The notes under the pieces are model-generated. The model did no database searches. It was not told the origin of the DNA and worked only from the letters and a program-made list of their open reading frames with translations. Of a stretch of DNA of 64,000 nucleotides, positions 26,931 through 60,309 are shown one piece after another. The DNA is taken from positions 8,893 through 72,892 of the forward strand of contig CAYPUE010000001.1 in the NCBI GenBank assembly GCA_964414015.1. The letters run 5' to 3'. The DNA comes from an uncultured Gammaproteobacteria bacterium (GTDB lineage Bacteria > Patescibacteriota > Microgenomatia > Levybacterales > UBA12049). The position numbers were made by a program, and so were the translations under genes. Each line of letters begins with the position of its first letter. Position 1 is the first letter of the stretch.

Positions 26931-27460
26931 AAATTGTTTTTCCTAATCTCAATCGATTTTAAAATTGCTTCTTTTAAATTTAATATTGTCGGAGGAGATT
27001 TTTCAGGCTTCCATTCAAACTTTTCCGGAACTTCACTTTTTAAAAGTTCGAGAACTTCTATGTGTTTTAATGCTGCATTTTGAAGAATATTCTTTTTATT
27101 CGCAATATTTTTATCTTCTCTCTCTGCTAACTTCAGATATAAAGGGGCTTGTGAAAAGTAGCTATCTGATTTAATTAATGCCTTATAACCCAACAAAAAC
27201 TGCTTGTATTCAAAGAGGGTTTTTGCTTCTACCAGATATTTATTTGATTGTTTTAGGTTATATTCAAACTGTCCGAAACTACCAAAGTGCCAATATCTCA
27301 TCATTTTCTCCCATACAAGGTGAAGTTTATACGAAGCACTTCCGGGCATTGAGGATGGATAAGGCAAAACGTAATTAGACTGCGCAAAAATAGCTGGAGG
27401 AAAAACTACGATCAACAAATAAATAATTATTGCGAATGCAAAAAGCTTTCCATTCGTCAT
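26927..27460 (-). CDS. Secreted hypothetical protein (signal peptide), paralog of 8990..9526
   Basis: The ORF track extends to 27502. The likely start is the ATG at 27460 (MTNGKLFAFAIIIYLLIVVFPPAIFA signal peptide), which overlaps the galE TGA stop as ATGA. Shared motifs LPYP...YKLHLV and LKHIEVLELLKSEVPEK. Confidence 0.5.
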   Translation of the reverse strand: MTNGKLFAFAIIIYLLIVVFPPAIFAQSNYVLPYPSSMPGSASYKLHLVWEKMMRYWHFGSFGQFEYNLKQSNKYLVEAKTLFEYKQFLLGYKALIKSDSYFSQAPLYLKLAEREDKNIANKKNILQNAALKHIEVLELLKSEVPEKFEWKPEKSPPTILNLKEAILKSIEIRKNNL

Positions 27461-28455: not shown

Positions 28456-28464
28456 AGGCTAATT

Positions 28465-29229: not shown

Positions 29230-29241
29230 AAGATGATAATA

Positions 29242-30894: not shown

Positions 30895-30902
30895 ATTTTA
30901 TA

Positions 30903-32567
30903 TTATAGTCCATTAACAACTCTTATTCCTGTTTCATTATTTAAATATCTGCCGATAAAAAGAGTTTTTATATTCCGTGGAAAATCATCGGGATTACCAA
31001 CATAAAGCGTTGTTTTGTTCTTCTGTTCTTTGCTCCAATTTATCGGCCTAAACTCAAATTTGGAAAATGCGTGCTCTTCTGCAAATCCTCCTGATTTTGT
31101 CCCGCCCTGCATCTGATAAACAGACGAGTCATACTTAGAATAGAAAAGGAAAAACATATACGACTGGTATAAATTATCTTTGTTGGAAAAAATAATTTTA
31201 TCGTAGGCATTTTGATTCTTTACGACGAAAGGGATAGTTTTGGATAAAGCATATTGAAAAGACTGCGATTGATTTTTGGAAAAAACAAAAAAATATTGCT
31301 GATAAAAATATCGTAATGATAAAATACCAACAATAAACAGTAAAAGGTAAAAAATAGATAAAATGTAAGCTTTAAATCTCACCTTTGCGATAAATTGGAC
31401 AGTAGCAAAAATTCCTAAAGAGGAAAGTATCTGCGGAACAGGCAATGTGTTGTATGCACGCATAGCATGTGGGGCCCCTGTAGTTAAAGAAGGAGCAACG
31501 AAAGAAGCAGTAAGCCATAGTATAATAATAGTCTTAATCTTTTTATCAAACTTCCCCAAAAGCAAAAAAATTACTCCTAAGAGCATAAAAGGGAACTCCC
31601 ACCAGTATAAAAGTCCTATTCCCGGAGCCTTAAAGCTTTCATTGCCGCTATTGCCAAAAATAAACTGTGGGTTTAGATGAGAGAAATAATTCCCAAGAAA
31701 TATTCTAATTGGAACTAAACGTCTGTTGTAAAAAATCTCTCCAACGATATTGCCTTCTTTTTTATATTGCAATACTTTATCAGCACTAATCCCATATGCC
31801 TTACTATTGTTAAATGCTGATGTGCCCTTAAAACGTAAAAGCCCTTGAGGAGTTAAAGTAACTAAAAATATTGGCAAAATAAATAAAATCCCTAAAATTA
31901 ATGATGTAAATACTTTTTGTTTCATTTTTAAAAAATGTTTTCTGAAGATATATAAAAAAACAAGTAAAATTAACGGGGCAAATATTTTTTCACTTTGATA
32001 AGTATAAAAAGATAATCCGAAAAATAAAGTTGAGATTAATAAGAAAAATTTATTTGGGGGATTATTGATTGCTTTGAGCAGGAATAAAACGGCAAGGACA
32101 ACAGAGGTCAAACCTGCATTTACCTCATGTCCAAGCCGTGAAATATAAATGTGCCACGGGGAAATTGCCAGAAGAAACGAAGAAAGCATAGCGATTGTTT
32201 CATTGCTAAATTGTTTAATTGTTGAATTCTTGAATAGCTCTTTTACCAAAAAATATGTAGATACAACTGTTAAAACTGACAGTATAACCGAAGGCAAACG
32301 AACTGCCAGCACATTAAGGCCAAATAGCTTTATAAATGGAATTACCAAATACACATATAAAGCAGGTCGCCAATCATCGTATGCACGAAGAAGTATTGGA
32401 AATTTCGTCCCATATTCATCAGCGCCCGTCTTTAAAATAGAATAAGCATTATAGCCAATCGATGCTTCATCAAGTGAAGCGGTGGGCGGAACATTGGTTA
32501 ATTGATAAAACCGTAAAAAAATCGCTAATAAAATAATTCCTAAAAAAATAATTTTCTTGCTATTCAT
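30903..32567 (-). CDS. PMT_2/ArnT-like GT-C glycosyltransferase (paralog 1 of 5)
   Basis: 554 aa. First loop LDEASIGYNAYSILKTGADEYG (GT-C DE motif). SPWHIYISR motif. More than 11 TM. About 55% identical N-terminal region to 32568..34196. Confidence 0.65.
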   Translation of the reverse strand: MNSKKIIFLGIILLAIFLRFYQLTNVPPTASLDEASIGYNAYSILKTGADEYGTKFPILLRAYDDWRPALYVYLVIPFIKLFGLNVLAVRLPSVILSVLTVVSTYFLVKELFKNSTIKQFSNETIAMLSSFLLAISPWHIYISRLGHEVNAGLTSVVLAVLFLLKAINNPPNKFFLLISTLFFGLSFYTYQSEKIFAPLILLVFLYIFRKHFLKMKQKVFTSLILGILFILPIFLVTLTPQGLLRFKGTSAFNNSKAYGISADKVLQYKKEGNIVGEIFYNRRLVPIRIFLGNYFSHLNPQFIFGNSGNESFKAPGIGLLYWWEFPFMLLGVIFLLLGKFDKKIKTIIILWLTASFVAPSLTTGAPHAMRAYNTLPVPQILSSLGIFATVQFIAKVRFKAYILSIFYLLLFIVGILSLRYFYQQYFFVFSKNQSQSFQYALSKTIPFVVKNQNAYDKIIFSNKDNLYQSYMFFLFYSKYDSSVYQMQGGTKSGGFAEEHAFSKFEFRPINWSKEQKNKTTLYVGNPDDFPRNIKTLFIGRYLNNETGIRVVNGL

Positions 32568-34196
32568 CTACTTGACTAATTCTATTGCCGTATTCCCGTC
32601 TGGATAATTTACCCTAGATAAAACATTAGCTGAAACTGGAAAATCGCTTGGCCTACCTATATACAGGGTATCTCCATTTTTATTTTCTTTATTCCAATCA
32701 ATAGGACGAAATTCAAATTTTCCAAATGTATGGTTTTCCCTAAAACCCCCGGATGCATATTGCGCTTCTTTCTGGTATAAGGCAGGAGGATATTGAAGAT
32801 AAAAAAGAAAAAATATATAAGATTGGTCCATTGGGGGCTGATTAGAAACAACTATTTTTTTATAATTACTTTCAATTTTTTTTACCGTCGTAATTGATTT
32901 TTCATAACCATATTGCCATTCTTTTGCATTAAAATAATTCTGTTGCGTAAAATACTGATTAAGATAATATGCAAAGTTAAAAATTAAAGATAAGAAGAGG
33001 ATAATGTATATGGAATATTTAATTCTTGAATTTGAAATTTTTTGTGCAGCGAAAAGCACTCCGATTGCAGTAAATATTTGAAATATCGGTAAGAAATTTA
33101 AAGTCCGTACCGCATGAGGAACTCCGCTTGTTATGGAAGCAGGTATTGGCGCCGCCAGAAACCAAAAGAACAACAGAAGCTTTACCTTTTTATCTAATTT
33201 ACCAAACAATAAAACAAATATACCCACAAAAAGAAAAGGTAAATCCCACAAATATAAAAGGCCCATATTCGGGGCATGATGACGGGCCAAATCACCTGTT
33301 ATAAAAAGCCAATTCAAATCAAAATGTGAGATATAGCCCGATACAACAGCTTTGGCAAAAACTATTCTTCTGTTATCCAAAACAAGGCCTATTAAATCAT
33401 TGTTTTTTTTATCTTCAAGCATCTTTTGCGCATTCTCTTTAAGAAGAGGGGTTGAATCCGCGAACACGCTTACGCCTTTTGCTCTTGCCAATGCCTCTTT
33501 ATTGTCAAAAGTAAAATTAATCATCGGCAAGGAAATTATTGCACCAATAATCAATGCTGCCGCTAAATATTTTTTAGAGATGGAGAAAAGTTGTTGTCTG
33601 AAAACAACAATAAGAATTACAGCTAAAATAGGAGTAAAGACCTTTTCGCTCTGATAAATATAAAAGTTTAAACCCATTAAGGCAGAAGACAATAAAAGAT
33701 AAAACGGCTTTTTAAGACCTTTAAGGAAAAAAAACACAGAAAATATATTAAATGCCATACCAACGCCTGATTCAAAGGCAATTCTTGAAAACTGCAAATG
33801 CCATGGGGAAATTGCCATCAGAAATGATGCAAGAAGAGCTGTTTTTGCGTTGGCGAATAGTTCTTTCACCAAGAAAAAAGTGGCCAAAACAGCCAGGATG
33901 CCAAAAATTACAGCCGGTAAGCGCACTGCATAAATATCAAGTCCTACTAATTTTATAAACGGGATTACGAAATAGGCATATAAAGCCGGCTTGTAATCAT
34001 CAAACGATCTTAAAACTACAGGTGAAAATTTGCCGTATTCGTCCTTACCCGTTTGCATTATCGAATAAGCATTATAACCTAAAGATACTTCGTCCCAATC
34101 GGGAGATAAAGGTACTTTACCTAATTGCCACAATCTTAATGTTGAAGCCAAAACTACAACACCTATAAGCAATATTAATGTAAAATTTTTACTCAT
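32568..34196 (-). CDS. PMT_2/ArnT-like GT-C glycosyltransferase (paralog 2 of 5)
   Basis: 542 aa. WDEVSLGYNAYSIMQTGKDEYG. SPWHLQFSR. Confidence 0.65.
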   Translation of the reverse strand: MSKNFTLILLIGVVVLASTLRLWQLGKVPLSPDWDEVSLGYNAYSIMQTGKDEYGKFSPVVLRSFDDYKPALYAYFVIPFIKLVGLDIYAVRLPAVIFGILAVLATFFLVKELFANAKTALLASFLMAISPWHLQFSRIAFESGVGMAFNIFSVFFFLKGLKKPFYLLLSSALMGLNFYIYQSEKVFTPILAVILIVVFRQQLFSISKKYLAAALIIGAIISLPMINFTFDNKEALARAKGVSVFADSTPLLKENAQKMLEDKKNNDLIGLVLDNRRIVFAKAVVSGYISHFDLNWLFITGDLARHHAPNMGLLYLWDLPFLFVGIFVLLFGKLDKKVKLLLFFWFLAAPIPASITSGVPHAVRTLNFLPIFQIFTAIGVLFAAQKISNSRIKYSIYIILFLSLIFNFAYYLNQYFTQQNYFNAKEWQYGYEKSITTVKKIESNYKKIVVSNQPPMDQSYIFFLFYLQYPPALYQKEAQYASGGFRENHTFGKFEFRPIDWNKENKNGDTLYIGRPSDFPVSANVLSRVNYPDGNTAIELVK

Positions 34197-35833
34197 AACG
34201 TATATGCTACGAGAGCCTTATCTCCATTTAGCAAATAAAAGGTTTTAAGCACATTTGCTTTGTTAGAAACTCCATTCGGGATATCGATGTAAAGAACTTT
34301 CTTGTTTTTGTTGTTGATATCGGACAGGTTCTTTGCAAATCTGTATTTATCAAAACCATTGATGTTAACAAATCCAAAAACTTCTCTCTGTATACTAGCC
34401 TCTTGCCTGTAATCTTTCGGATTCTTCTTTGTATAAAATACATAATAGATATAAGGCCTGCCTAACGCCATCGTAATGTTAATCTGATCAAAATTATCTT
34501 TTTGGTTTTCTGCATAACTTATGGAATCTTTATATCCGTACTGCCACTCACCGGAAAATTCCCTAGGATAATGAACCAGATAATCACGGTAGAAATACAT
34601 AAAATTTATAAATAAAACAACTGCTAGTATAGATATTGCAAATTTTTTGTATTTCTTAAGTAAATTTATGGCTGTTAAAAATCCTATTGCTATAAAAATT
34701 TGAAATGTAGGCAGTACCGTCTCTATCCTAAGGGCATGCGGAGTTTCCCGTGCCGTAGCAGCAGGCACTATTCCCAACATTAGCCATAATGGCACAATCC
34801 ACCAGTACCCTTCTCTCTTCTTAAGCAAAAATAAAATACCTATTATAAAAAAGGGCAGATCCCATAAGTACATCTCTCCAACTATTTGTGTCGAAAATTT
34901 AGGATTACCGTCTCCTTTAATAAACAAAAAGTTGGGATTTAGATTATCAAAATAATGCCGCAGATATTCAGCGCCGTAAGCCAAACGCCTATTGTGAATT
35001 ATTTTTGACCAAAGAGAATTATTGTCATTGGCTATTTGCTGATTTGCGGATACAACAACTCCAATTTCGGAAAAAATATTTACTTCTTTAAAGCGTAAGC
35101 TTGCTTGCGGAGACAGTAAAAATTTCAAAGTAGGAAGCAGCATCAACACTCCTATGATTATCGCCATTAAAACCTGCATCTTTTCCTTAAAGAGCGTTTT
35201 CCAAAATCCTATACCCAACATTAAAACAATAAGAGGAACAACAACTCTTGCCGTATTAAATGTATATATTGATAAGGCAAAAGATGTTGCAGAAAATAAT
35301 AGATACCATTTTTTTTCTTGGACTCCTCCTAAAAATAGCCATATTCCTGTAATTATAAAAAACGTAGCAATATTTGCTTCAAATGCAGCGCGTGAAAGCA
35401 TAATGTGCCATGGGGAAATTGCCAGGATAAATGAGGTTAAAATAGCGTAAATATTAGCATTGTTAGATTTATAAAATATTCTTTTAACCAAAAAGTAGGT
35501 TATAAAAACCGTTAAGACGCCAAAAAGCGCTGATGGGAATCTCGTAGCAAATTCCGTAAGTCCAAAAATTTTAACAGGGATTATATCTAGATATGCATAA
35601 ACTGGAGGCTTGAAGTCCCCAAAAGATTCCAGATAATCAAGAGGCAAAAATCTGCCAAATTCATCTTTGCCGTCAATCCCAAGCGAATAAGCATTATATC
35701 CCCACGCGGCTTCATCCCAAGTTAAAGACGGAGGATTACTTCCAAGCTGATAAAACCTTAAAAAGAAAGCAATAATTAATATGAAAAATAGATACGCTGT
35801 ATTTCTAAAGTTTAGCATTAATTCACCAACCAA
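34193..35833 (-). CDS. PMT_2/ArnT-like GT-C glycosyltransferase (paralog 3 of 5)
   Basis: 546 aa. WDEAAWGYNAYSLGIDGKDEFG. SPWHIMLSR. Confidence 0.65.
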   Translation of the reverse strand: MVGELMLNFRNTAYLFFILIIAFFLRFYQLGSNPPSLTWDEAAWGYNAYSLGIDGKDEFGRFLPLDYLESFGDFKPPVYAYLDIIPVKIFGLTEFATRFPSALFGVLTVFITYFLVKRIFYKSNNANIYAILTSFILAISPWHIMLSRAAFEANIATFFIITGIWLFLGGVQEKKWYLLFSATSFALSIYTFNTARVVVPLIVLMLGIGFWKTLFKEKMQVLMAIIIGVLMLLPTLKFLLSPQASLRFKEVNIFSEIGVVVSANQQIANDNNSLWSKIIHNRRLAYGAEYLRHYFDNLNPNFLFIKGDGNPKFSTQIVGEMYLWDLPFFIIGILFLLKKREGYWWIVPLWLMLGIVPAATARETPHALRIETVLPTFQIFIAIGFLTAINLLKKYKKFAISILAVVLFINFMYFYRDYLVHYPREFSGEWQYGYKDSISYAENQKDNFDQINITMALGRPYIYYVFYTKKNPKDYRQEASIQREVFGFVNINGFDKYRFAKNLSDINNKNKKVLYIDIPNGVSNKANVLKTFYLLNGDKALVAYTL

Positions 35834-35874
35834 TATTAATTATAACGCAAAATGTATATACTATACCAGTAAGT

Positions 35875-37419
35875 ATGGTTTTATCTAAAATCAAACCGTT
35901 CTATCTTTTTCTTTTGGTCGTTTTCTTGTCTTTAATTTTTCGAATAACTAATCTTGATCTTATAGAATTTAAGATTGACGAAGCGAGTAACTTACTTTTG
36001 GCAACCAGACTAATGTTTGGGCATCCTTTGCCGTATGGAGGAATTACCTCAAGCGTAGGCATTCTCAATCCTCCTTTATTCAACTACCTTTTAATCCCGC
36101 TTACTCTAATTTCCTTGGACCCTAAAGTAATCGTAGCCATTATCGCACTTATAAACTCTTTAACAATTGGATTATTATTCTTAATAATCAAAAGATACTA
36201 CACGACAGTTCTTGCTTTCATTACGAGCCTTATTTTGGCATTCTCACCGTGGTTAATTATTTTTTCAAGAAAAATCTGGCCTCCTGATTTAATCCTTCCT
36301 TTTTCCGTATTGCTTTTTCTAAGCATCCATAAAATAATTATTGAGAAAAAAACAGTTTTCTGGATTCCTTTTGTTTTGCTTTCTTTATTTTTTATACAGC
36401 TAGATTTATCATCTGTATTTTTTGTATTTTTAATATCTGTGTTGCTAGTTGCTCAAAAGCCTAAAATTAATTGGAAATATATATTCATTGGGTTCTTATT
36501 GGGAATACTTCCTGCAATTCCTTATTTTATCTATGAGATCAAAAATAATTGTCCGGATTGCATTCTTCTAGTAACTATTAATAAACAACTTGGATCAAGT
36601 AATTTCGAAGTTCTATTGAAACCTTTACAAATAATAAGCCAAGGAAATTTTAACTTTCTTTTAGGGAATGATATTATTACTTTCTCCAAACAGTTCCCTA
36701 TCGTATTTAAGCTAAAGGCATTATTCTATATAGAATATCTCTTTATACCAATAGGTGCATTTTTGTTTTGGAAAAAATATAAAACATTAAGTTTTTTAGC
36801 TTATGCCGCAGTCGGATTACCCTTATTGTATTTCATTTTTCGTCTCCGGCCATACATGCATTATTTTATAATTCTGGTTCCCTTTTTATCCATTTTTCTG
36901 TCAACCACACTTGATTATTTAATGCAATCTAAGAACCGTGCGTTACGTTACACAACAATAATTGTATTTATATCTTTAATTGCTTATTCTATAGTCTTTA
37001 ATCTATCTTTTTTTCAAATTATAAGAAAACAGAACGGACTTAGTGGAGATTATGGAGCATCATTCAATAAAACTTTACCTTACGTAGAACAGCAAATTAC
37101 AAAATATAAAAATCAAAAAGATTATCAGGAAATATTATTATCTTCCTACATTGATGTCTCTGCAATGCGCGGCGTATCTCCTTTTGCCGTAATGATTTAT
37201 CCGCCGAAGGAAACAGCAAGAAATTTAAAAGCTATAGAAGAAAAGCTAAAAAATGATTCCAATGATCCAAGAATATTCCAGGAGCTTATGGTGTATTACA
37301 CTTCGCAAAAAATAACCAGACCTTATGTTGATTATATTAAGAAGAAAATTACCATATCCCCTGTTTATGAAATAATCTACAACGAAGTAAACCATTTATA
37401 TAACGCTAGCCGGTACTAA
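35875..37419 (+). CDS. Polytopic membrane protein, GT-C-like glycosyltransferase
   Basis: 514 aa. First loop FKIDEASNLLLATRLMFGHPLPYGG (DE motif). About 11 TM. The only large + strand gene inside the minus-strand array. Confidence 0.45.
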   Translation: MVLSKIKPFYLFLLVVFLSLIFRITNLDLIEFKIDEASNLLLATRLMFGHPLPYGGITSSVGILNPPLFNYLLIPLTLISLDPKVIVAIIALINSLTIGLLFLIIKRYYTTVLAFITSLILAFSPWLIIFSRKIWPPDLILPFSVLLFLSIHKIIIEKKTVFWIPFVLLSLFFIQLDLSSVFFVFLISVLLVAQKPKINWKYIFIGFLLGILPAIPYFIYEIKNNCPDCILLVTINKQLGSSNFEVLLKPLQIISQGNFNFLLGNDIITFSKQFPIVFKLKALFYIEYLFIPIGAFLFWKKYKTLSFLAYAAVGLPLLYFIFRLRPYMHYFIILVPFLSIFLSTTLDYLMQSKNRALRYTTIIVFISLIAYSIVFNLSFFQIIRKQNGLSGDYGASFNKTLPYVEQQITKYKNQKDYQEILLSSYIDVSAMRGVSPFAVMIYPPKETARNLKAIEEKLKNDSNDPRIFQELMVYYTSQKITRPYVDYIKKKITISPVYEIIYNEVNHLYNASRY

Positions 37420-37440
37420 CTAAATAAAAAAAGGCAAACA

Positions 37441-39108
37441 CTACCTTGTATCTAGAATACGAAATACGATTGAGTTATCTTCTCTGCTTACAGCCCCTAA
37501 TTCTCTACCTTGAGGAATAGGTTTACACAAACCACTATTAATATAGAGAGTGTTTTTATTCCCAATAGGTAATCCATTCTTATCAACCTTCAGAGGACAC
37601 TCTTCTTGGGAAAATTCAAATTTACCAAAATTTATCCTATCGAAGTCTTGCATGGTTGTATTTTTGGTTTCTTCTTGAAAAATTTTAGGGCTATATTTGT
37701 TATAAAAAAGAAAAAATATTGTCGGAGCAGATTCTCTATTGGTTATGACCACCTTTTCGTAAGAGGATATAATCCTATTAACGTTTCTTGCCAGTTTTTC
37801 ATATCCGTCGTTTCTATACCATGGCCTATATTTATTAACGTGCACATAATACTGATGTAGGTATGATAAAAAGCTAAATATGCTAGTTATGCAAAGTAAA
37901 CCAACTGCAATTTTTCCAAAAAGTTTATTTTCATTAACCTTCGATAAAACATACAGCAATCCTAAAGCCGATATGATAGATAGTGCTGGAAAAACAATAA
38001 GTGTTCTTTGTAAATTTGGGACATCATCAAAAGTTAAGGAACTTCCTATGGGAGAAAGCAATATCCATCCAATCAAAAAAAATGAATTCTTCTTATCTAT
38101 ACCCAATAAATACCAGACTCCTAAAATAAGTAAGGGTAATTCAAATACATACAAAAGTCCAAAAAGAGGAACACGATAGCGGTCTGGCAATCCTTGGTCT
38201 GTAAAAAGAAAATTGTATGAGAAATGCTTAAAATAATTACTTAAAATTTCATTAGAATAACCTATTAATTTATTATGAAAAATTCTAGTAATCGTATTAT
38301 TTGTTTTTCCTACCCCATCTTCTCTTATTTGTTCGTCGAGCACCAGTTGGGTTTCTGAACCAGATAAAATACTTACCGTTCTTATCCTTAAAGACAAATT
38401 TTTAGATGAAAGTATTAAAAATAATGGCATTACTATTGTAAATAAAAACGTAACAATAATTAAGGCTATTCTTTTTTTTGTTATTCGTGGTACCAAAAAA
38501 CTAATAATTAAAAGAAGTATGAGAAAAGGAAGAAATGCTCTAGGAGCTTGATAGATAAAAAGTGTTAAGCCAAATAAAATAAATGACAGAAATAAAAGAT
38601 ATAGAGAGTTTTTGCGTATCCAGATTAAATAGAGCAGCGTAGCCAGTGATATGAAAAATACTACAATCGTATTCTCCGTTGCAGTACGCGATAAATTAAT
38701 ATGCCATGGGGAAACTGCAAGAAATAATGAACTTAGTAAAGAAAGCCATATTTTGTTTTTAAATTTACAAAAAAGCTCCATTGTCAGCCAAAACGTTGAA
38801 ATAATGGTTAAGCTGCCAAAAAATGCAGAAGCAAATCTAACAGAGAATTCATTCAGATCAAACAAAAATATAAATGGGATAGAAAAATAAGAATAACCTG
38901 CAGGACTGTATATGAATGATCCTAAATGTAAGGGAAAATATTTACCGCTCATGTCTTTTCCCGTTTCAAGAATTGAGTAGGCATTGTAGCCTAGAAATGC
39001 TTCGTCCCTATGAAGCGTTACGGGCACTTGTCCGAGATTATAAAATCTAAGAAAAAATCCAAGAAGTAATATAAATAAAATAATTAATAACGTTAATCGT
39101 TTGCTCAT
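37441..39108 (-). CDS. PMT_2/ArnT-like GT-C glycosyltransferase (paralog 4 of 5)
   Basis: 555 aa. HRDEAFLGYNAYSILETGKDMSG. SPWHINLSR. Confidence 0.65.
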   Translation of the reverse strand: MSKRLTLLIILFILLLGFFLRFYNLGQVPVTLHRDEAFLGYNAYSILETGKDMSGKYFPLHLGSFIYSPAGYSYFSIPFIFLFDLNEFSVRFASAFFGSLTIISTFWLTMELFCKFKNKIWLSLLSSLFLAVSPWHINLSRTATENTIVVFFISLATLLYLIWIRKNSLYLLFLSFILFGLTLFIYQAPRAFLPFLILLLIISFLVPRITKKRIALIIVTFLFTIVMPLFLILSSKNLSLRIRTVSILSGSETQLVLDEQIREDGVGKTNNTITRIFHNKLIGYSNEILSNYFKHFSYNFLFTDQGLPDRYRVPLFGLLYVFELPLLILGVWYLLGIDKKNSFFLIGWILLSPIGSSLTFDDVPNLQRTLIVFPALSIISALGLLYVLSKVNENKLFGKIAVGLLCITSIFSFLSYLHQYYVHVNKYRPWYRNDGYEKLARNVNRIISSYEKVVITNRESAPTIFFLFYNKYSPKIFQEETKNTTMQDFDRINFGKFEFSQEECPLKVDKNGLPIGNKNTLYINSGLCKPIPQGRELGAVSREDNSIVFRILDTR

Positions 39109-50885: not shown

Positions 50886-51659
50886 TTATTTCCTATCTCT
50901 TATTTCTTTCTGTTGTAGTTCCCACAATCTCGCATAGGTAATAAAGATGCTGAAAGATTGATATATACTCTCTATAATCCCCACAGTTCCTGCCTTCCAT
51001 CCTCCTTGCTTAACATAGGAATCAAAAAATGCAGTTGACATCACGCGCGGAAACCTCCACCATGAGATCTTGGGATGGTTAGCGGCTAATCGAAGCTTCG
51101 CTTCAACTTCTGACCACTCAATGGTTTTATTAAGCATCGCCGTAAGATCTCTATGTGAGTAATGCAACAGGGATCCATCCAATATTCCAACTTTGCCCTC
51201 AAAAATTGGGCTTTCATGAAGTTTGCCTTTCCAGCCTTTCAATTTATCTTTTCTAAAAAGCCTTTCTATTTTTTCTATAAAAGGCCACTCATTCTTTCTT
51301 GAAGAACCCAAATAAAAATTTTTCCTTTTAATTTTAAACGCAACTGCATCGTCATATTTGATATTTGATATTTTATATTTGATATTGCGAACAAGCTCGC
51401 TTGTGACGCGTTCATCTACATCTACATACAACACCCATTCGCTAGTTGATTTTTCTAAACCAAAATTTCTAAGAGCAGAAAAATTATCGGATTCCAATAT
51501 GTAAACTTTTGCACCCATATTTTTTGCTATATCCAAAGTTTTGTCCTTAGAACCTGCGTCAATCACGATAATTTCATCACAGAACGCAATCGAATTTAAG
51601 CAATCTTTAATTAAATTTTCTCCGTCTTTAACTATTACAATCGCAGAAATTTTACTCAT
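50886..51659 (-). CDS. GT2 family glycosyltransferase with conserved C-terminal domain (paralog of 28465 and 52576)
   Basis: 257 aa. ISAIVIVKDGENL, IIVIDAGSKDKT, VDVDE. Linker RNIKYKISNIKYDD encoded by heptanucleotide repeats. Confidence 0.7.
   Translation of the reverse strand: MSKISAIVIVKDGENLIKDCLNSIAFCDEIIVIDAGSKDKTLDIAKNMGAKVYILESDNFSALRNFGLEKSTSEWVLYVDVDERVTSELVRNIKYKISNIKYDDAVAFKIKRKNFYLGSSRKNEWPFIEKIERLFRKDKLKGWKGKLHESPIFEGKVGILDGSLLHYSHRDLTAMLNKTIEWSEVEAKLRLAANHPKISWWRFPRVMSTAFFDSYVKQGGWKAGTVGIIESIYQSFSIFITYARLWELQQKEIRDRK
51356..51383 (-). repeat. Heptanucleotide tandem repeat (atttgat atttgat attttat atttgat) inside the GT2 linker
   Basis: Read directly. Four copies with one mismatch. 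Encodes KYKISNIKY on the minus strand. Homologous position to 28917..28944. Confidence 0.7.
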
Positions 51660-52573
51660 ACCCTAAAACTTCCTTTCCCGAACTTACCCGTATAAAAGTC
51701 CCAAATTCCTCTTTTCTGCCAATATCTTCCTTTTAAAAACAATGATAATGATTCCTTGATAAGAGCTAGTTTTGATTTAAATGGAGCGTATTTTATTCCA
51801 AAGAGCATTCTATTGCGGGTTATATAATAATCCTGCAAATTTGACCCAGAGCCACCAGCTGACGCTGCATTTTTATGCCAAATTATTGCTTTTGGTGAAT
51901 AAATAATTTTGTAGCCTGCTTTCTTGGCTTTTTGACTAAAATCATTGTCTTCGTAATATAAAAAATATTTTTCATTAAACAGACCTATCTTTTTAAATAC
52001 TTCGCTTTTAACTAACATGCAGCAACCGGTAGCAAATTCCGTTTCTTCTTCTTTGTCGTATTGTCCTTTATCAACCTCATCAACACCTTTATGACGACCG
52101 ATTATATTTGCCCAATCCATTGTTCCGCCGGCATACCAAAAAACTTTTCCTTGATCTTCTTTTTTATACCTGTTTTTATGGAATTCATATCCCTTCGCGA
52201 AATAAATCTTTGGAACTACAATGCCGATATTTTCGTCTTTTTCCGCTGATTTTAAAAATTCTGCGATTAAATTCTTATCAACAATCGTATCGTTATTCAT
52301 AATAACAATAAAGCCTGCTCCATTTTCCAACGCATATTTTATCCCCATATTATTACCCTTAGAATAACCCAGATTTTCTTTATTGGCTATGATGGCAGCA
52401 TTTGGAAATTGTTTTTTAACAGCTGCTAATGAGCCATCTGTTGAGGCATTATCCACTACTATAATCTCAATCCTTGTATCTTTAGGAAGTAAGATATTTC
52501 CTATCGATTCTAGACACTCTAACGTATCTTCTTTGCCGTTATAGTTTAATATAACAAATGAAACTTTTTGCAT
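51656..52573 (-). CDS. GT2 family glycosyltransferase (rhamnosyl/hexosyltransferase-like)
   Basis: 305 aa. VSFVILNYNGKEDTLECL, IEIIVVDNASTDGS, IMNNDTIVD. Confidence 0.7.
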   Translation of the reverse strand: MQKVSFVILNYNGKEDTLECLESIGNILLPKDTRIEIIVVDNASTDGSLAAVKKQFPNAAIIANKENLGYSKGNNMGIKYALENGAGFIVIMNNDTIVDKNLIAEFLKSAEKDENIGIVVPKIYFAKGYEFHKNRYKKEDQGKVFWYAGGTMDWANIIGRHKGVDEVDKGQYDKEEETEFATGCCMLVKSEVFKKIGLFNEKYFLYYEDNDFSQKAKKAGYKIIYSPKAIIWHKNAASAGGSGSNLQDYYITRNRMLFGIKYAPFKSKLALIKESLSLFLKGRYWQKRGIWDFYTGKFGKGSFRV

Positions 52574-52575
52574 CT

Positions 52576-53514
52576 TTACCAGCCAAACCTATCAATGAGG
52601 ATAACTAATATTTTCTTAAACGGATTCTTAACTTGTTTTATGCGCTCTTTTGATGACCAAAATTGTATTTGTTGATGTGATTTGTCAAGTTCACTTCTTA
52701 CCTCATCCAAAAGCTTATCACTTGTAGGATCGCTGAATTTCTGCATCTCCCATATATTTGCAAAAACGATAAAATGATAAAAAGCCATTAGGATTGAAAG
52801 CATTAAACCATGAAAACCATCCTTATAGCCTTCTCTTGCGAAAAACCTGCTTAAAAATTCTCCAAGAGGAAACCTTATGGCATCACGCCAGTTAAAAACG
52901 TATCCGTTAGCAATCCTTTGTTCTGCTTCATTTGGCGCGTAAATATTTGCCATTTTAGATAAAAATTGCCTAATTGAATCATAGTTATAATGAACGATAT
53001 TATTATTTAAATAAGCTGTTTCCCCTTCTACTTTTATCATCTCGTGAACATGTTTTTCTTCAAATCTGCCTTTACTGTTTTTGAACAATCTAAGCTGATG
53101 GTCCGGATACCAACCCGTATGCTGCATCCATTTGCCGAAAATTATATTTTTTCTAGGAATCCAGTAGCCATTGATTGGTCTTTGGCCGTTGGTCTTTGGC
53201 CGTTGGTCTAGAATACTGACGATTTCTTTTTGTAGCTCGGGGGTCGCTCTTTCATCCGAATCCAAGTTTAAAATCCAATCATTCTTGGTTTTTGAAAAAC
53301 CAAAATTTTTGTTTATATTGAGCATTCTGTTATTTGGCCTAACAAAAACTTTCGATGTATATTTCTTTGCGATGTCTAAAGTTCTATCTGTTGATGAGTT
53401 ATCAACGAAAATAATCTCCTGTGCCCATTTAACAGATTCTAAGCAGTCCTTTATTTTATCTTCGCTATTGAAGGCTGATATAACAACCGAAAGTTTAACC
53501 ATATTATTTCGCAA
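52576..53514 (-). CDS. GT2 family glycosyltransferase with conserved C-terminal GYWIPRKN domain
   Basis: 312 aa. LSVVISAFNSEDKI, IIFVDNSSTDRT, NLDSDE. Linker DQRPKTNGQRPING then GYWIPRKNIIFGKWMQHTGWYPDHQLRLFKNSKGRFEEKHVHE. Confidence 0.7.
   Translation of the reverse strand: MRNNMVKLSVVISAFNSEDKIKDCLESVKWAQEIIFVDNSSTDRTLDIAKKYTSKVFVRPNNRMLNINKNFGFSKTKNDWILNLDSDERATPELQKEIVSILDQRPKTNGQRPINGYWIPRKNIIFGKWMQHTGWYPDHQLRLFKNSKGRFEEKHVHEMIKVEGETAYLNNNIVHYNYDSIRQFLSKMANIYAPNEAEQRIANGYVFNWRDAIRFPLGEFLSRFFAREGYKDGFHGLMLSILMAFYHFIVFANIWEMQKFSDPTSDKLLDEVRSELDKSHQQIQFWSSKERIKQVKNPFKKILVILIDRFGW
53177..53209 (-). repeat. 14-nt tandem repeat (ggtctttggccgtt x2.4) in the GT2 linker
   Basis: Read directly: ggtctttggccgtt ggtctttggccgtt ggtcta. 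It encodes QRPKTNGQRPIN, with the unit read in two different frames. The unit length is not a multiple of 3. Confidence 0.7.
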
Positions 53515-54958: not shown

Positions 54959-55679
54959 AATTTATATCTCTCCATAAGGCAAAACTTTCCCGTATTGCTC
55001 TAATTATAACTCTTAAATTCCCCCCGCTTTGATTACCATATTGACGCTTGTAATGATTAACCTCAACTTGTGTAATTTTCAAATTTTTCTTCTTAGCTTT
55101 GGCAAAAATCTCCGTGGTTATCATCGCCCCTTCTGATTTAAAAGGCATAATCTTACGAAGAGCGCTTTTCTTGAACATTTTAAACCCACAATCAATATCC
55201 CTGTAATAAAAACCGAAAAAGATGAAATCCCAAATTTTCAAAAGATTCATTAACAGATGTCTAAAAGGATGATCTAGACGTTTTTTCCTGTATCCAACCA
55301 CCATATCTGAATTGCTGATTTTATCTATAAATTTTGACACTTCTCTAAAATCAAATTGGCCGTCTCCATCATTAAAAACAACCAAACTGTATCTTGCGTT
55401 GTTAAATCCTTCTTTTAATGCCGCTCCATATCCTCTATTTGGCTTGTGGGACACGACTCTAAGCCTTGGGTCTTCTTTTGTGAGTCTTTTTGCGATTGCC
55501 AAAGTGCTATCCGATGAACCGTCATCCACCATGATTATCTCCCATTTATCAGCTACTTTTTGAGCCACAGGAATTACATTCTTTACAACCTTTTCTATAT
55601 TCTTTTCTTCATTCCAAAAAGGAAAAAAAATTGACAGCGCGGGAACTTTTTTACTCATATCGTAATTTTCTATTCGCAA
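54945..55679 (-). CDS. GT2 glycosyltransferase, DPM1/GtrB-like (no TM)
   Basis: 244 aa. LSIFFPFWNEEKNI, WEIIMVDDGSSDST, VVFNDGDGQFD (DxD). The start may be the internal ATG (MSKKVPALSIFF). Confidence 0.65.
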   Translation of the reverse strand: MRIENYDMSKKVPALSIFFPFWNEEKNIEKVVKNVIPVAQKVADKWEIIMVDDGSSDSTLAIAKRLTKEDPRLRVVSHKPNRGYGAALKEGFNNARYSLVVFNDGDGQFDFREVSKFIDKISNSDMVVGYRKKRLDHPFRHLLMNLLKIWDFIFFGFYYRDIDCGFKMFKKSALRKIMPFKSEGAMITTEIFAKAKKKNLKITQVEVNHYKRQYGNQSGGNLRVIIRAIRESFALWRDINYGRN

Positions 55680-57147
55680 AAGAGATTATACCAATAATCA
55701 AAGCTAAAATGCCAATAAAAGAAGCTATATTTGAAGTCTTTTCCAGCGTAGTTTCTTTAAACGGAATAGGGTCTTTCGAGACTTCTTTTTCCGATTTGGG
55801 TTTTGTAAAATTAGAAGGTAAATATTCGTCCGAAATTTTGGACGCTGTCCATTTAAGAGCTTTCTCATTTGTAAAATCGCTTGCAGTTGACGGAAAAATT
55901 GTTTGAGGAACGAAAAACTTGAGATTAAAAAATAAAAGAAAAAATACCAGCAGAAATGCTACGAGATAAGGTTTTATTTTGAATTCAGATGAAAGAGGAA
56001 TAATTGCTCCGGAAAGTATCGAAGAAAAAAATGAAGCCATGATTAAAAATCTCCACGGATATTGAAAAAAAGACATAACTGAAATTGTTTCCCATAAAAA
56101 TTTCGAGATGTTAAGCATTAGAAAAACAGCAATAATAAAACCCGCAAGGCTGAAAATAGTTAAATAATATATACCCGCCTTGCGGCGAGGCAGGTTATTG
56201 AAGTATTTGCGTTTGGCTCTTAGATAAATCAAAATGGGAATTATGGATAATACAGAAAGAATGTGCAACTTGCCTATCATAAAAGACATTCCGTCAATAC
56301 AGTTTTTTGCGGAACCGCCAAATCCCCAAGGACTTGTCCAGAGTTGCTCAAAACAAACAAAATGATCTCGGAAATCCGCTCCTCCGCCGATTTGCGATAA
56401 AACATTAGTATATTTCATTTCCGAAAGCGCCGGCAGCCAATAGAAAGCGGAAAGAACTAAACCCAAGATGACAGTAAGTAGCAAGTAGCATGTAGTACGT
56501 AGACGAGTTTCTTTTCTTGATAAAATAATAAACAACAAGCAGACAATAAGCAAAAACGGCGTTACCATCAGAGCAGTTAAATTGTGAGAAAGAATAACTC
56601 CGGCAAATCCCAAAGCGCCAACAGCTACATATTTCCATTTGGGATTTTTATAAACTTTGATTAATCCGTAAAAAGACAGAGGAATAAAAGCATAAGCCCA
56701 AAATTCTGCCACATCTCCACGTACATAGATATCAACAGCATGGTATGGAGCATAAGCGTAAAATAAACCTGAAACTATCCCGCCCAATTCTCCGAAAAAA
56801 TTCCTGGCTAAAAGATACATAAAAACCCCACTCAAAATAACTCCCAATGCCATCATTATTTTTGTAGCTAAAAGTGCATCAAATCCCAATAATGTAAATA
56901 TTCCGCCAGCGTAATAAGCTAAAGGAGCGTAAAAATTAAAAATCGGATATCCATATCCATAACCTAAGTCCGGAACCCACCTAACGGGAAACATTCCGCT
57001 TTGGAGCATTTTTCCCATCTCAAAAACTCTGGCAACTTGAGTATTGTCATGCATTGGGAAAAACCCGGAAACAAATAAAGGCTTTATCGCCCAGAAAGAT
57101 AAAACCAAAACTAAAATCAATCTATAATGTTTTTTAAGAAAATTCAT
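55651..57147 (-). CDS. HDG-PRW-GYGYP family polytopic membrane protein (YfhO-related GT-C-like), C-terminal YFPGW domain absent
   Basis: 498 aa. FFPMHDNTQVARVFE...GMFPVRWVPDLGYGYGYPIFNFYAPLAYY. Ends with a TM anchor but lacks the YFPGW block. Confidence 0.5.
   Translation of the reverse strand: MNFLKKHYRLILVLVLSFWAIKPLFVSGFFPMHDNTQVARVFEMGKMLQSGMFPVRWVPDLGYGYGYPIFNFYAPLAYYAGGIFTLLGFDALLATKIMMALGVILSGVFMYLLARNFFGELGGIVSGLFYAYAPYHAVDIYVRGDVAEFWAYAFIPLSFYGLIKVYKNPKWKYVAVGALGFAGVILSHNLTALMVTPFLLIVCLLFIILSRKETRLRTTCYLLLTVILGLVLSAFYWLPALSEMKYTNVLSQIGGGADFRDHFVCFEQLWTSPWGFGGSAKNCIDGMSFMIGKLHILSVLSIIPILIYLRAKRKYFNNLPRRKAGIYYLTIFSLAGFIIAVFLMLNISKFLWETISVMSFFQYPWRFLIMASFFSSILSGAIIPLSSEFKIKPYLVAFLLVFFLLFFNLKFFVPQTIFPSTASDFTNEKALKWTASKISDEYLPSNFTKPKSEKEVSKDPIPFKETTLEKTSNIASFIGILALIIGIISFANRKLRYE
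56474..56501 (-). repeat. Degenerate heptanucleotide-period repeat (gtaagta gcaagta gcatgta gtacgta) inside the membrane-protein CDS
   Basis: Read directly. 7-nt period, g.a.gta consensus. Encodes LRTTCYLLL. Homologous position to 58038..58069 in the adjacent paralog. Confidence 0.4.
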
Positions 57148-58664
57148 ATCTTTTTTTTAATTACCGCAAACAAAAGCGCGCCAAAACTTATTATTGAAAT
57201 TAAATCCGCTGCCAATCTGATCGGTGTTTCCTCAAATGCAACCTTAACGTTATTCTGTCCCTTATCAAGATTTAATCTTATTAATCCCTGCTGATTATTA
57301 TAATCTATATTTGCTCTTTTCCTGTTGACAACCGCCATCCATCCCGGAAAATAAACCGTATTCACCTGAATTGTTCTTGGCGTTGGTAAATAAACATCAA
57401 ATGAGATTTGTTTCGGACTAATAATAGTTGTGTTAATTTTTTCCTGACCGTTTAAATTTTCAACTTTGGCGTTTGGTCTTGCAGATGGAAGAGCTTTAAC
57501 CCATTTTGGCATATATTCATTTTTTATTGTTGTTGTTGCCTCATTGGTTGCGTAAAATGTATCTCTTTTATCGAAAAACAAAGAAGGGCTGATAAATTGT
57601 CTGGCAGAAAAACCCAACAGCAATAATAGAATTACTGCCATAATAATTTTTAAATTTTTTGCCAATAATGAAAGCGACACTGCTGCCAAAAATGCCCCAC
57701 ATGAAATTGTCAAAGATAAAAAACGGAAAGGAAATTGAATAAAAGAAACCGGCAGAAAATTCCATAAAGGTTTACTTAATTCTACGGAAAAAAATAAAGA
57801 CAAAATACCGATAATAAAAAATAGAACTGTTAATCTGTGTTTGGCAAGCGCAATTTTATTAGTAAGAAAAAGAATTATTGTTAAAAAGAAAACAAAAATG
57901 ATCGGTATGCCAATTAAACTGCTATTTACGAAGTAATTGCTCCATTCTGAAACAGCAGTTTGGGAAAAAACCGTATATTGCAAATCCGCTATGGCCGGAA
58001 GCCAGAAAAAGGAGGAAACGCCTAAACCCAAAGTCACAGTAAATAGTAAATAGTAGATAGTAGATAGTTTTCTGAAAATAAAGTAAACAATAATAACAGG
58101 CAAAAACAAAACTGCCAGAGTATTGTGGGAAAGAATTAAAAGAGCAATGCCTATACTTGTCCAAAAAAGACTTTTACGCTCAATTTGCCAAAAGATAAAT
58201 GGGACGATTGCCAAAGCCAAGACTTCCCCGACAGATCCTCGTTTGTAAATATCATATAAGTGATATGGGACATAAAGATAAAAAAGTGCGCCGACAAATG
58301 ATTCAAGTTTTCCGAAAAACTTTCTTAGCCAAAGATATGCGAAAACCAAAGAGCCGGCCATGGACAAACCGAAAATTATTTTGATTGAATTGACAAAACC
58401 GAAACCCAAAAGTTTCGGTACCTCTGCCAAATACATGAAACCGGGATATAAAAAATTTGCCACCGGATAACCGTACTCGTAATTAAGTCTGGATAAAAAG
58501 CGCACTGGAAATTCTCCGGCTCTTAAAGCCTGATGAAAAGCAGAAAATCTGATAATCATCCATTCTCCGTCATCGCTTTGAAAAAATCCAGGATGAAAAA
58601 GAGAAGCAATAGATGGAATTGCAAAAATAATTAAGATAAAAATTAAAAATAAATTCTTCTTCAT
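57144..58664 (-). CDS. HDG-PRW-GYGYP family polytopic membrane protein (YfhO-related GT-C-like) with C-terminal YFPGW domain
   Basis: 506 aa. GFFQSDDGEWMIIRF...GEFPVRFLSRLNYEYGYPVANFLYPGFMY. C-terminus NTVYFPGWMAVVNRKRA...KGQNNVKVAF plus a TM. Confidence 0.55.
   Translation of the reverse strand: MKKNLFLIFILIIFAIPSIASLFHPGFFQSDDGEWMIIRFSAFHQALRAGEFPVRFLSRLNYEYGYPVANFLYPGFMYLAEVPKLLGFGFVNSIKIIFGLSMAGSLVFAYLWLRKFFGKLESFVGALFYLYVPYHLYDIYKRGSVGEVLALAIVPFIFWQIERKSLFWTSIGIALLILSHNTLAVLFLPVIIVYFIFRKLSTIYYLLFTVTLGLGVSSFFWLPAIADLQYTVFSQTAVSEWSNYFVNSSLIGIPIIFVFFLTIILFLTNKIALAKHRLTVLFFIIGILSLFFSVELSKPLWNFLPVSFIQFPFRFLSLTISCGAFLAAVSLSLLAKNLKIIMAVILLLLLGFSARQFISPSLFFDKRDTFYATNEATTTIKNEYMPKWVKALPSARPNAKVENLNGQEKINTTIISPKQISFDVYLPTPRTIQVNTVYFPGWMAVVNRKRANIDYNNQQGLIRLNLDKGQNNVKVAFEETPIRLAADLISIISFGALLFAVIKKKI
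58038..58069 (-). repeat. Heptanucleotide tandem repeat (agtaaat agtaaat agtagat agtagat) inside the membrane-protein CDS
   Basis: Read directly. Two perfect copies of each of two units. Encodes STIYYLLFT, which is TM-helix residues. Confidence 0.7.
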
Positions 58665-58671
58665 TTAAATT

Positions 58672-60309
58672 TTATTTGGTCTCTAAAATCGTAAACATGA
58701 ACTGATTGTTTGGCAAAATTACATCGTATCTTGGGTTATAATTCGACCGCAAAGACATCGGGACATCTGAAGACCAATCGATAAGCAATGTATTTTTTAA
58801 ATTTATATCTTTCTTCCAGTCAATCGGCCTAAATTCATATCTGCCAAAACTTTTGACATACACGAATTCATCTTCTGTCGGCGCATATCTGACAGCTTGT
58901 TTTTGATATAGAAAAGGATCGTATTTGCTGTAAAAAAGAAGATAAATATAAGGCTCGTATTGCGGTCTTGCCATAATTATTTTTTGGGAAGAAAACTGGG
59001 GTTCTGCCAGCAACAAATTTAATTCTTTATAACCCAAACCCCAATTTTGCGCCTCATTTCTTGGGAAATGTACATAATATCTATCCAGATATAAAGAAAA
59101 ATTTATAATAAACAAAAACGCAATTATAGAAACTGCAAATATTCTCCATTTTTTATTGATCAGGCCCGTGAACGACCACAAACCAAAAGCTGTAACCAAA
59201 GGCAGAATTGGAAAAATCGCAAACATTCTGTTGGCATGCGGCGCATCTTTGGTAATACTGGCTGCAATTGGAGAAATAAAAAACCACCACAAAACCAAAT
59301 ACTTTTCTTTGCCCTTTTTAAAAACGACTAAATAAACCAATCCTAAGAAAAGAAACGGCGCTTCAACTAAATACATATTGCCGAAATCAGCAATGTTGTG
59401 CGCTTTATTAGTTCCTCCGCTGACGAATAGAAACTGGCCGGAAAAAGCATTGATGTAATTTTGTCCGAATCTTTCCAAGCCAAAAACAACACGGTTATGC
59501 GTTAATCTAGTGAAAAAAGAATTAAGATTGCCATGTTCCAATCTTGGCAATTCGATTTGCGCGTGTACAACCGACGGATCGCCGAAAATACCAATTCCTG
59601 AAATCTTTGTTTTATCTGCGCCAAAAAGTGTTTGGGAAAAAATAAAACCGGACATTGCTAAAAAAATAACTATCGCAATTATGGTTGTTTTTGTTATTTT
59701 TATCTCTAAGCGATAAATAAGCAATAAACCCAAGACGATAAGGCTAGTAAAAACATGGTTTCCTGCGTAAGTAAAATAAGTCAAAGCGAAGAAAAAAGCT
59801 GCAGGAATTATCAGCCAATGTTTTTTCTTCAGACTGTTGAGAAAACAAATCATCCCCAAGACAACAAAGAGAACTGCGGTATTGGATTCTGACTCAACTC
59901 TGGATAAGTGCAGATGCCACGGTGAAATTCCAATTAAAAACATTGCTAAAAAAGCTAATAAATTATTTTTGAAAAGCAACTTTATCAAGAAAAATGCCAG
60001 ACCAACCGAAGCAATACCAACCAAAGCCGAAGGCAGCCGGACAGCCAATTCCGAAAGCCCCAGAACGCTAACAAACGGCACAACGCTATAAATATAGACC
60101 GGCAGTTTCCAATCGCCAAAAGACTGAAACGATAAAGGCATAAATCGGCCGTACTCATCACGCCCGGTATGTAGAATTGAATAAGCAGTATAGCCGATGG
60201 ATGCCTCGTCTTGATTTACTCCGGGAGGAACAGAGTCTAAATGATAAAGCCTTAGGAGGGCGGCGAGAAAAAGAATGATAAAAAAAACGAGCAGCAATTT
60301 CTTACTCAT
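58672..60309 (-). CDS. PMT_2/ArnT-like GT-C glycosyltransferase (paralog 5 of 5)
   Basis: 545 aa. VNQDEASIGYTAYSILHTGRDEYG. SPWHLHLSR. Confidence 0.65.
   Translation of the reverse strand: MSKKLLLVFFIILFLAALLRLYHLDSVPPGVNQDEASIGYTAYSILHTGRDEYGRFMPLSFQSFGDWKLPVYIYSVVPFVSVLGLSELAVRLPSALVGIASVGLAFFLIKLLFKNNLLAFLAMFLIGISPWHLHLSRVESESNTAVLFVVLGMICFLNSLKKKHWLIIPAAFFFALTYFTYAGNHVFTSLIVLGLLLIYRLEIKITKTTIIAIVIFLAMSGFIFSQTLFGADKTKISGIGIFGDPSVVHAQIELPRLEHGNLNSFFTRLTHNRVVFGLERFGQNYINAFSGQFLFVSGGTNKAHNIADFGNMYLVEAPFLFLGLVYLVVFKKGKEKYLVLWWFFISPIAASITKDAPHANRMFAIFPILPLVTAFGLWSFTGLINKKWRIFAVSIIAFLFIINFSLYLDRYYVHFPRNEAQNWGLGYKELNLLLAEPQFSSQKIIMARPQYEPYIYLLFYSKYDPFLYQKQAVRYAPTEDEFVYVKSFGRYEFRPIDWKKDINLKNTLLIDWSSDVPMSLRSNYNPRYDVILPNNQFMFTILETK

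Follow-up and report, generated by a model that had tools for sequence, protein, structure and literature searches.

The 64,000-nucleotide (nt) stretch of DNA analysed here, which we call the window (positions 8,893 to 72,892 of contig CAYPUE010000001.1, assembly GCA_964414015.1), carries on its minus strand a gene for a family 2 glycosyltransferase (GT2), and within that gene lies a short tandem repeat whose unit is not a multiple of three; the gene, the tract and related tracts are listed in Table 1. The mechanically called open reading frame (ORF), 52576..53514, opens at a TTG codon, and the ATG at 53502, which follows the stop codon of an upstream flippase-like gene after a one-base gap, gives a protein of 308 amino acids (aa), the length of its closest orthologs. 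The product matches PF00535 with an E value of 4.6e-23 (82.4 bits, compared to a cut-off of 23.3 bits) and has a DSD motif just upstream of the tract, part of a DSDE sequence conserved as D.DE across homologs; with a profile match above the cut-off and a DxD motif it belongs to the GT2 enzymes of the GT-A fold. Among solved structures its closest relatives are GmaR, through the GT2 domain (22ao, E 5e-14), and TarS (5tze). With these GT-A fold enzymes it shares the Pfam match, the DSD motif and a predicted Rossmann-like N-terminal half; it differs from GmaR in that the tract region is an insertion in the pairwise alignment.

Tandem Repeats Finder (TRF) reports the tract as an array of period 14 with 2.5 copies, 100% matches and a score of 70, the highest in the window, and also gives it a weaker period-7 reading. 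The plus-strand letters are ttGGTCTTTGGCCGTTGGTCTTTGGCCGTTGGTCT, and on the coding strand they divide into the heptamers AGACCAA CGGCCAA AGACCAA CGGCCAA AGACCAA; the basic unit is 7 nt, and the 14-mer consists of two alternating heptamer variants. The initial annotation of this DNA had described a 14-nt duplication with the unit ggtctttggccgtt, beginning at 53177 and present in 2.36 copies. That repeat is real and free of mismatches, and two further matching bases upstream extend it to 2.5 copies. Codon-level reading of the coding strand also bears out the proposal that the quoted peptide arises from one unit read in different frames: the codons GAC CAA CGG CCA AAG ACC AAC GGC CAA AGA CCA ATC AAT are translated D Q R P K T N G Q R P I N, with the repeat, at codons 98–110 of the 308-aa protein, encoding (L)DQRPKTNGQRPI. 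In a lag scan of the window (match +1, mismatch -3) the tract scores 21 at lag 14, and 30 first-order Markov shuffles of the window give on average 0.0–0.03 segments scoring at least 14 at each lag from 4 to 30, so that chance does not account for the tract. Its GC content is above that of its surroundings, in a window of about 34% GC. A simple 21-nt in-frame duplication was considered as a description of the tract and rejected, with identity of 10/14 at period 21 versus 21/21 at period 14; it is further contradicted by an ortholog (L006, Table 1) in which the tract is a perfect heptamer array.

An AlphaFold2 model built from 24 sequences (mean predicted local distance difference test score, pLDDT, 83) places the tract from the C-terminal end of helix 92–104, through loop 105–113, to the first residue of strand 114–125 (312-aa numbering), with residues 101–110 forming a low-confidence block of pLDDT 67. 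The earlier assignment of the repeat to a linker agrees with this model, and the best reading is that the tract sits in a predicted tolerant surface loop of a GT-A fold enzyme. That a single-unit change would truncate the protein likewise holds in simulation: changes of -14, +14, -7 and +7 nt introduce stops at aa 112, 125, 118 and 119 respectively, and simulated 21-nt changes keep the reading frame.

The age of the tract emerges from comparison with orthologs. The four closest protein clusters share 83–87% identity with the focal protein, are 308 aa long, and have loops of equal length with the peptides QRPKTNDQRPE, QRPKTKDQRPV, QRPKTNDQRLT and QRPKTNDQRTV. Five units occupy the same codons in all five lineages with an AGACCAA-type tract (the window, L006, L009, L010 and L011), and the five genes align over 927 nt without an indel and are, outside the tract, 84–89% identical (67–78% at third codon positions). 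Because the same 35-nt tract is present in diverged, indel-free orthologs, it predates these lineages and does not reflect a recent duplication. At least five lineages have diverged since the tract arose, with length and frame kept and the units changing in concert. The discrete tandem duplication of the initial annotation is thus not supported, as four orthologous lineages already hold the 35-nt tract; the array is fixed and ancient, with diverged copies in, for example, L011.

Concerted change of the units is evident from the lineage-specific substitutions, which are paired and 14 nt apart in three lineages. The window has A>G in units 2 and 4, of which one is synonymous (CGA>CGG) and the other replaces D with G (GAC>GGC); L010 has C>T in units 3 and 5, with a synonymous ACC>ACT and a CCA>CTA change of P to L; and L006 has C>A in units 2 and 4, with a synonymous CGA>AGA and an AAC>AAA change of N to K. 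At roughly 7–8% per-site divergence per lineage, a same-base match 14 nt away is expected at about 0.025 per substitution, and the occurrence of three pairs in three lineages by chance would be of the order of 1e-4 or less, which is our own estimate and not the outcome of a formal test. Pairs that are synonymous in one copy and non-synonymous in the other fit copying between units, that is, homogenisation at the DNA level, and are not predicted by selection at the protein level. The copies of the tract are identical through re-homogenisation, and not through youth.

The same position is periodic elsewhere in the family. The earlier remark on a non-triplet repeat shared in position by all three paralogs is correct, with 7-nt-period tracts at the aligned position in both of the others, although these are only 33% (28465..29229) and 30% (50886..51659) identical to the focal protein (tblastn). 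A tandem score of at least 10 is reached by 42 of 100 distinct loop DNAs (39 of them at lag 7, 14 or 21) and by 11 of 469 control windows of equal length from the same genes, only one of which is at lag 7; the loop of this GT2 family is a heptamer hotspot. The units vary widely among loci (AGACCAA, ACTATCA, AAATTGG, AGCCATC, AATCAAC, AAAATCA and ATCCAAC), and internally perfect tracts of 4–5 units differ between lineages by one unit-level substitution, as in the series AAATTGG (five loci), AAATTCG, AAATCCG, AAATCGC and AAAATCC, and in a second set, ACTATCA versus ACAATCA. Length differences among relatives are seen only as unit steps of 21 nt (7 aa); for example, EIEDKIGNSVNG (P0083 and P0088, with a 20-aa loop) and EIEDKIGNWKLEIGNSVNG (P0018, with a 27-aa loop) are three AAATTGG units apart. 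Many loops have a seven-residue period and no obvious DNA repeat (e.g. KSEIQQP KSEIN), consistent with decayed tracts.

Loop lengths peak at 20, 23–24, 27–28, 30–31 and 34 aa, and the idea that they change wholly in 7-aa steps was upheld only in part, as GC-rich palindromic inserts, and not extra units, account for the forms of 30 and 34 aa. In several relatives (loops of L057:614-700, L130, L166 and L099; P0011/21/29, P0049/53/82, P0098 and P0075) the tract is split by a GC-rich palindromic, in-frame insert of about 21–42 nt encoding a P/R/G/A-rich peptide within an otherwise 34% GC gene; one example is CCCGCCCGACTTCGCCTGCGAGCGAACTCGCTGGCGGGCGGG, for which a folding energy of -29.9 kcal/mol was obtained over the surrounding 80-nt stretch. 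Such inserts could have arisen as miniature hairpin insertions directed at the tract. Two further loci bear on the history of the loop region. In an ortholog of the focal gene (L013:10223-10344, GCA_030651475.1) a 123-nt patch spanning the DxDE motif, helix, loop and strand is 88% identical to window 28880..29001 on the minus strand, within the paralog 28465..29229, although the two proteins are overall only about 33% identical, and this looks like paralog-to-paralog gene conversion of a loop cassette. In a Roizmanbacteria locus (L087:1501-1788) an N-terminal GT2 fragment covering residues 3–99 ends just before the loop and lies directly upstream of a full-length copy (1810-2697).

Length variants and OFF alleles were sought at several levels. 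The exact 308-aa product is present on contigs of five separate Logan assemblies, in all of which the gene is identical to the window at 927/927 nt, and three replicate assemblies of the ortholog P0002 agree in both protein and loop DNA. All 80 of 80 species-representative genome loci read through in one frame, with none frameshifted by tblastn frame continuity. As these loci were ranked on full-length similarity, which could hide broken genes, metagenome contigs were searched with an N-terminal 94-aa alignment only; of the resulting 80 loci, 73 are full length in one frame, six are cut by a contig end, and one is frameshifted elsewhere. No OFF allele was found at the loop in 154 evaluable related loci, 74 of which are from the metagenome set that is unbiased toward intact genes. 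Nor were any of eight predicted slipped products (-28, -21, -14, -7, +7, +14 and +21 nt) found among about 15 billion proteins, in which the native sequence is present. The instability, or switch behaviour, implied by the initial annotation is accordingly unsupported, with no length variant among the assemblies, the replicates or the proteins.

The single metagenome frameshift (L097:2100-2160) lies at a T7 homopolymer near aa 212–229 in an old Joint Genome Institute (JGI) assembly and is probably a sequencing error unrelated to the tract. P0122, a 183-aa C-terminal fragment in the same 90% cluster, was considered as a frameshift allele and rejected, as it reflects an in-frame TAA in a different, short loop. 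Locus L175:2647-3552 (GCA_041643115.1, same 90% protein cluster) has an in-frame TAA in its short loop (EIKEIIEN*KASGYW) and is called as pieces of 100 and 183 aa; it is the only disrupted close relative, and is a nonsense allele, not a slippage allele.

Table 1. Positions of the focal glycosyltransferase gene and of heptamer tracts in the window, with the units of the orthologous tracts.
Feature	Position	Strand	Evidence or detail
GT2 (GT-A fold) glycosyltransferase gene, 308 aa	52576..53502	-	Pfam PF00535; orthologs; exact product in five assemblies
Heptanucleotide coding microsatellite, five units	53175..53209	-	TRF; codon-level reading; orthologs L006, L009, L010, L011
Heptamer tract (AATATCA, 4.7 copies), loop of GT2 paralog 50886..51659	51354..51386	-	TRF period 7, 92% matches; alignment; encodes NIKYKISNIKY
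Decayed heptamer tract (AAATCAA-like, 4.6 copies), loop of GT2 paralog 28465..29229	28915..28946	-	TRF period 7, 76% matches; alignment; encodes EIKNQISNSKN
Heptamer tract (ATTGAAA, 4.6 copies), interdomain linker (aa 153-164) of GT4 gene 19022..20092	19603..19634	-	Lag-7 score 17; Pfam domains 55-144 and 170-327
Heptamer tract (CAAATCT/CAAAACT, 4.7 copies), C-terminal tail of epimerase/dehydratase gene 27457..28455	27460..27492	-	Lag-7 score 22; Pfam
Heptamer tract (ACTATCT/ACTATTT, 4.4 copies), membrane protein gene 57144..58664	58038..58068	-	Lag-7 score 20; TRF
Weaker 7-nt tracts, two membrane-protein paralogs	25148..25180, 30211..30244		TRF; same alignment columns as 58038..58068
Orthologous tract, L006			AGACCAA AGACCAA AGACCAA AGACCAA AGACCGG
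Orthologous tract, L009			AGACCAA CGACCAA AGACCAA CGACCAA AGACCAG
Orthologous tract, L010			AGGCCAA CGACCAA AGACTAA CGACCAA AGACTAA
Orthologous tract, L011			AGACCAA CGACCAA AGACCAA TGACCAA AGAACAG

Heptamer tracts are not confined to the GT2 paralogs, and those in other genes of the window have 4.4–4.9 units. At a score of at least 14 the lag-7 tracts of the window are those in the GT4 gene, the epimerase/dehydratase gene, the paralog 50886..51659 and the membrane protein gene, and the lag-14 tracts are the focal tract and, again, that of 50886..51659; no tandem repeat with any other period from 4 to 30 nt reaches this score in the window. The epimerase tract overlaps the start of the next gene (26927..27502), and the three membrane-protein paralogs with tracts at one alignment position are of the PTPS_related/YfhO-like type. 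A wider survey of 617 kb from 164 related sources (score at least 12, lags 2–30) gave 50 tracts at lag 7, 42 at lag 14 and 16 at lag 21, with 11 at all other lags combined, one of them at lag 28, likewise a multiple of seven. Survey tract lengths peak at 30–34 nt and reach 40 nt at most; 21 of 31 perfect tracts fall in the range of 30–34 nt, with four complete units and part of a fifth, and 46 of 50 tracts lie inside long intact ORFs. Several loci of other species (including L078:2508-2541, L118:2577-2610, L110:2522-2554, L117:2571-2602 and L019:2662-2694) also have perfect heptamer tracts about 1000–1200 nt beyond the focal gene's start; judged by their position, they probably lie in the N-terminal region of the GT2 gene that comes next, orthologous to window 51656..52573. 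The window's own 51656..52573 has no such heptamer tract.

The neighbours of the focal gene encode a Wzx-type flippase, four more GT2 enzymes (two of them the close paralogs), GT4 enzymes, YfhO proteins and many PMT_2/PTPS_related membrane proteins, and together constitute a very large envelope-glycan cluster. Candidatus Levybacteria and other Patescibacteria are the sources of the named homologs, and the host is best read as a Levybacteria-like bacterium of the Candidate Phyla Radiation (CPR). At 24184..39108 and 55651..60309 there is an unusually dense run of at least nine paralogous membrane proteins of 500–555 aa (PMT_2/PTPS_related/YfhO type) beside several GT2 and GT4 genes; it points to a glycan-assembly region that is very large for a CPR bacterium with a small genome.

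The explanation we favour, and consider likely, is that the tract is an old heptanucleotide microsatellite that is locked in frame and evolves in concert. Misaligned pairing of repeat units during replication or repair would homogenise the tract, as the substitution pattern suggests, either by slippage loss followed by a compensating gain or by transient out-of-register templating with no net change in length. With such misalignment, a substitution in one unit would be passed on to another at a distance of 7 or 14 nt, so that the 14-mers stay identical despite the age of the tract, and purifying selection on the enzyme would remove every frame-breaking length. On this reading the tract is one instance of a lineage-wide bias toward repeats of almost exclusively 7-nt period, about 35 nt long at most, inside intact envelope-glycan genes, and the ceiling near 35 nt may reflect a frameshift load that rises with length.

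Simple sequence repeats (SSRs) in glycosyltransferase genes of host-adapted pathogens vary surface glycans through gain or loss of units, and Neisseria pglE, encoding a pilin-glycosylation glycosyltransferase, contains a heptanucleotide repeat. The tract could be a contingency locus of this kind, a hypermutable switch that adds or drops one unit to silence or restore the glycosyltransferase and so varies the surface glycan within the population. The non-triplet unit inside an ORF and the simulated truncation at aa 112–125, with loss of the full-length product, are as expected for such a locus, as is the setting in a very large envelope-glycan cluster in which several other genes have similar tracts; heptanucleotide SSRs have also been proposed to mediate phase variation in Haemophilus influenzae (PMC2651432). 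We nevertheless regard a switch as unlikely. The assembly-level data show no difference in repeat number with ON and OFF alleles, whether at the 154 related loci, in the five identical same-population assemblies or among the predicted slipped products; five units are kept throughout five lineages at about 15% DNA divergence; and the sole disrupted relative has an in-frame TAA with no unit change. Five heptamers, or 2.5 14-mers, also fall short of the length associated with high mutability, compared to 13–38 units in the heptanucleotide SSRs at H. influenzae hmw (PMC2651432). The locus has the anatomy of a contingency locus, yet fails its defining test of copy-number polymorphism with ON and OFF alleles.

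Other explanations have less to commend them. Selection might act on the protein, with the repeated peptide (QRP...QRP, at a seven-residue period) being functional and the DNA periodicity a by-product, and a seven-residue period is indeed seen in many loops (QRPKTNG QRP, KSEIRNP KSE, STINHQL ST). This is very unlikely, given that the loop peptide is wholly different in close relatives (QRPKT..., STINHQLST, KNQISNIKN) in which the rest of the protein is 81–87% identical, that a seven-residue repeat needs no heptamer read in all three frames, that only one member of each substitution pair is silent, the other altering an amino acid, and that the position is a predicted surface loop of low model confidence. 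A one-off recent 14-nt duplication, restoring a frame broken by a nearby indel or itself compensated by one, would explain why the 14-mers of the window are 100% identical and why the loop is 4–5 aa longer than those of the paralogs; we find it highly improbable, with the same 35-nt periodic tract in four orthologous lineages, no indel anywhere in the gene, perfect heptamers rather than 14-mers in L006, and a copy identity better explained by the paired substitutions. As for chance low-complexity sequence or an assembly artefact, an AT-rich genome (34% GC) does raise background repetitiveness; but with almost no shuffled segments at this score, a tract more GC-rich than its surroundings, identity in five independent assemblies, and the tract's presence in assemblies from other groups, we give this essentially no credence.

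Several considerations weigh against an old, frame-locked microsatellite evolving in concert. The AGACCAA-type tract is found in five lineages only, and the argument from paired changes rests on three events; no slippage event was observed directly, the mechanism being deduced from the substitution pattern; and consensus assemblies hide minority length variants. Homogenisation without loss of frame would need double events or templated misalignment, and the origin of a perfect tract of 4–5 units from one of 1–2 units seems to need out-of-frame intermediates, a point that speaks for a contingency locus. Moreover, nothing in the analysis explains the period of seven or the stop near 35 nt.

Concerted evolution of tandem repeats is the homogenisation of units by unequal exchange, slippage or conversion. 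The present tracts resemble it in that the units of one genome resemble each other more than they do those of another genome and in that a unit-level substitution spreads to all copies; they are unlike its usual form in that the homogenised array is a coding tract of only 33–35 nt with a frame-locked length, in which net change is almost never fixed except in 21-nt steps. Compared with the SSR contingency loci of H. influenzae, both tetranucleotide and heptanucleotide (PMC2651432), they share a non-triplet repeat in a glycan-synthesis ORF that truncates on a one-unit change, and differ in being much shorter, in keeping their length over about 15% DNA divergence, and in having no copy-number polymorphism or OFF allele among the loci searched. 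According to the accounts of the survey of Mrazek et al. (2007) in PMC4679880 and PMC4692102, heptanucleotides are over-represented among prokaryotic long SSRs, for which a polymerase footprint, with about 7 nt held by the polymerase, has been proposed, and coding SSRs tend to have units that are multiples of three; related cases are cyanobacterial tandem heptanucleotides, GGGAATC in Xanthomonas and TAACTGA in Beggiatoaceae. As described there, these long SSRs share with the present tracts a great excess of 7-nt units over other units of 4–30 nt (here in both the window and the 617 kb), unit sequences that vary between loci, and a proposed slippage origin. The described cases are mostly intergenic and some have a fixed unit, whereas the tracts here lie in intact ORFs (46 of 50 in the survey), where they are read in all three frames and are not of triplet-multiple unit length. 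The present tracts also differ in having about five units at most, in a position kept across species and paralogs, and in their unit-by-unit concerted evolution. The heptanucleotide long-SSR class thus fits by unit length and excess, and the coding, frame-locked and positionally conserved nature of the tracts sets them apart from it.

We tentatively suggest, as a possibility we hold with some doubt, that a replication or repair bias of Levybacteria (CPR/Patescibacteria) specific to 7-nt units creates and re-homogenises coding tracts, four to five units long, at set, tolerant loops in many envelope-glycan genes, with the reading frame quantising their states at about 1.x and 4.x units (7 aa). 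Genes that would exemplify it are the three GT2 paralogs, the GT4 gene, three to four membrane glycosyltransferase-like paralogs and the epimerase tail. A literature search returned nothing specific on heptanucleotide repeats in CPR/Patescibacteria or on the proposed 7-nt bias.

Non-triplet microsatellites within genes are usually taken as contingency switches or as pseudogene scars. Here a tract at one codon position across species, and even in paralogs only 30% identical, is in frame in every relative checked, and constitutes a natural frame-locked coding microsatellite; annotators of these genomes should not infer phase variation from the sequence of a perfect non-triplet repeat alone. If the 7-nt bias is true, each turnover of a tract would pass through short-lived out-of-frame alleles and would amount to slow, low-frequency phase variation, and the bias would be a generator of surface-loop diversity in organisms with tiny genomes. 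Should the heptamer spectrum be confirmed genome-wide, it would offer a testable handle on the older proposal that polymerase geometry favours 7-nt slippage, as well as a source of rapid variation in loop sequence and length, in 7-aa steps, in the cell-envelope glycan machinery of ultra-small, host-attached bacteria.

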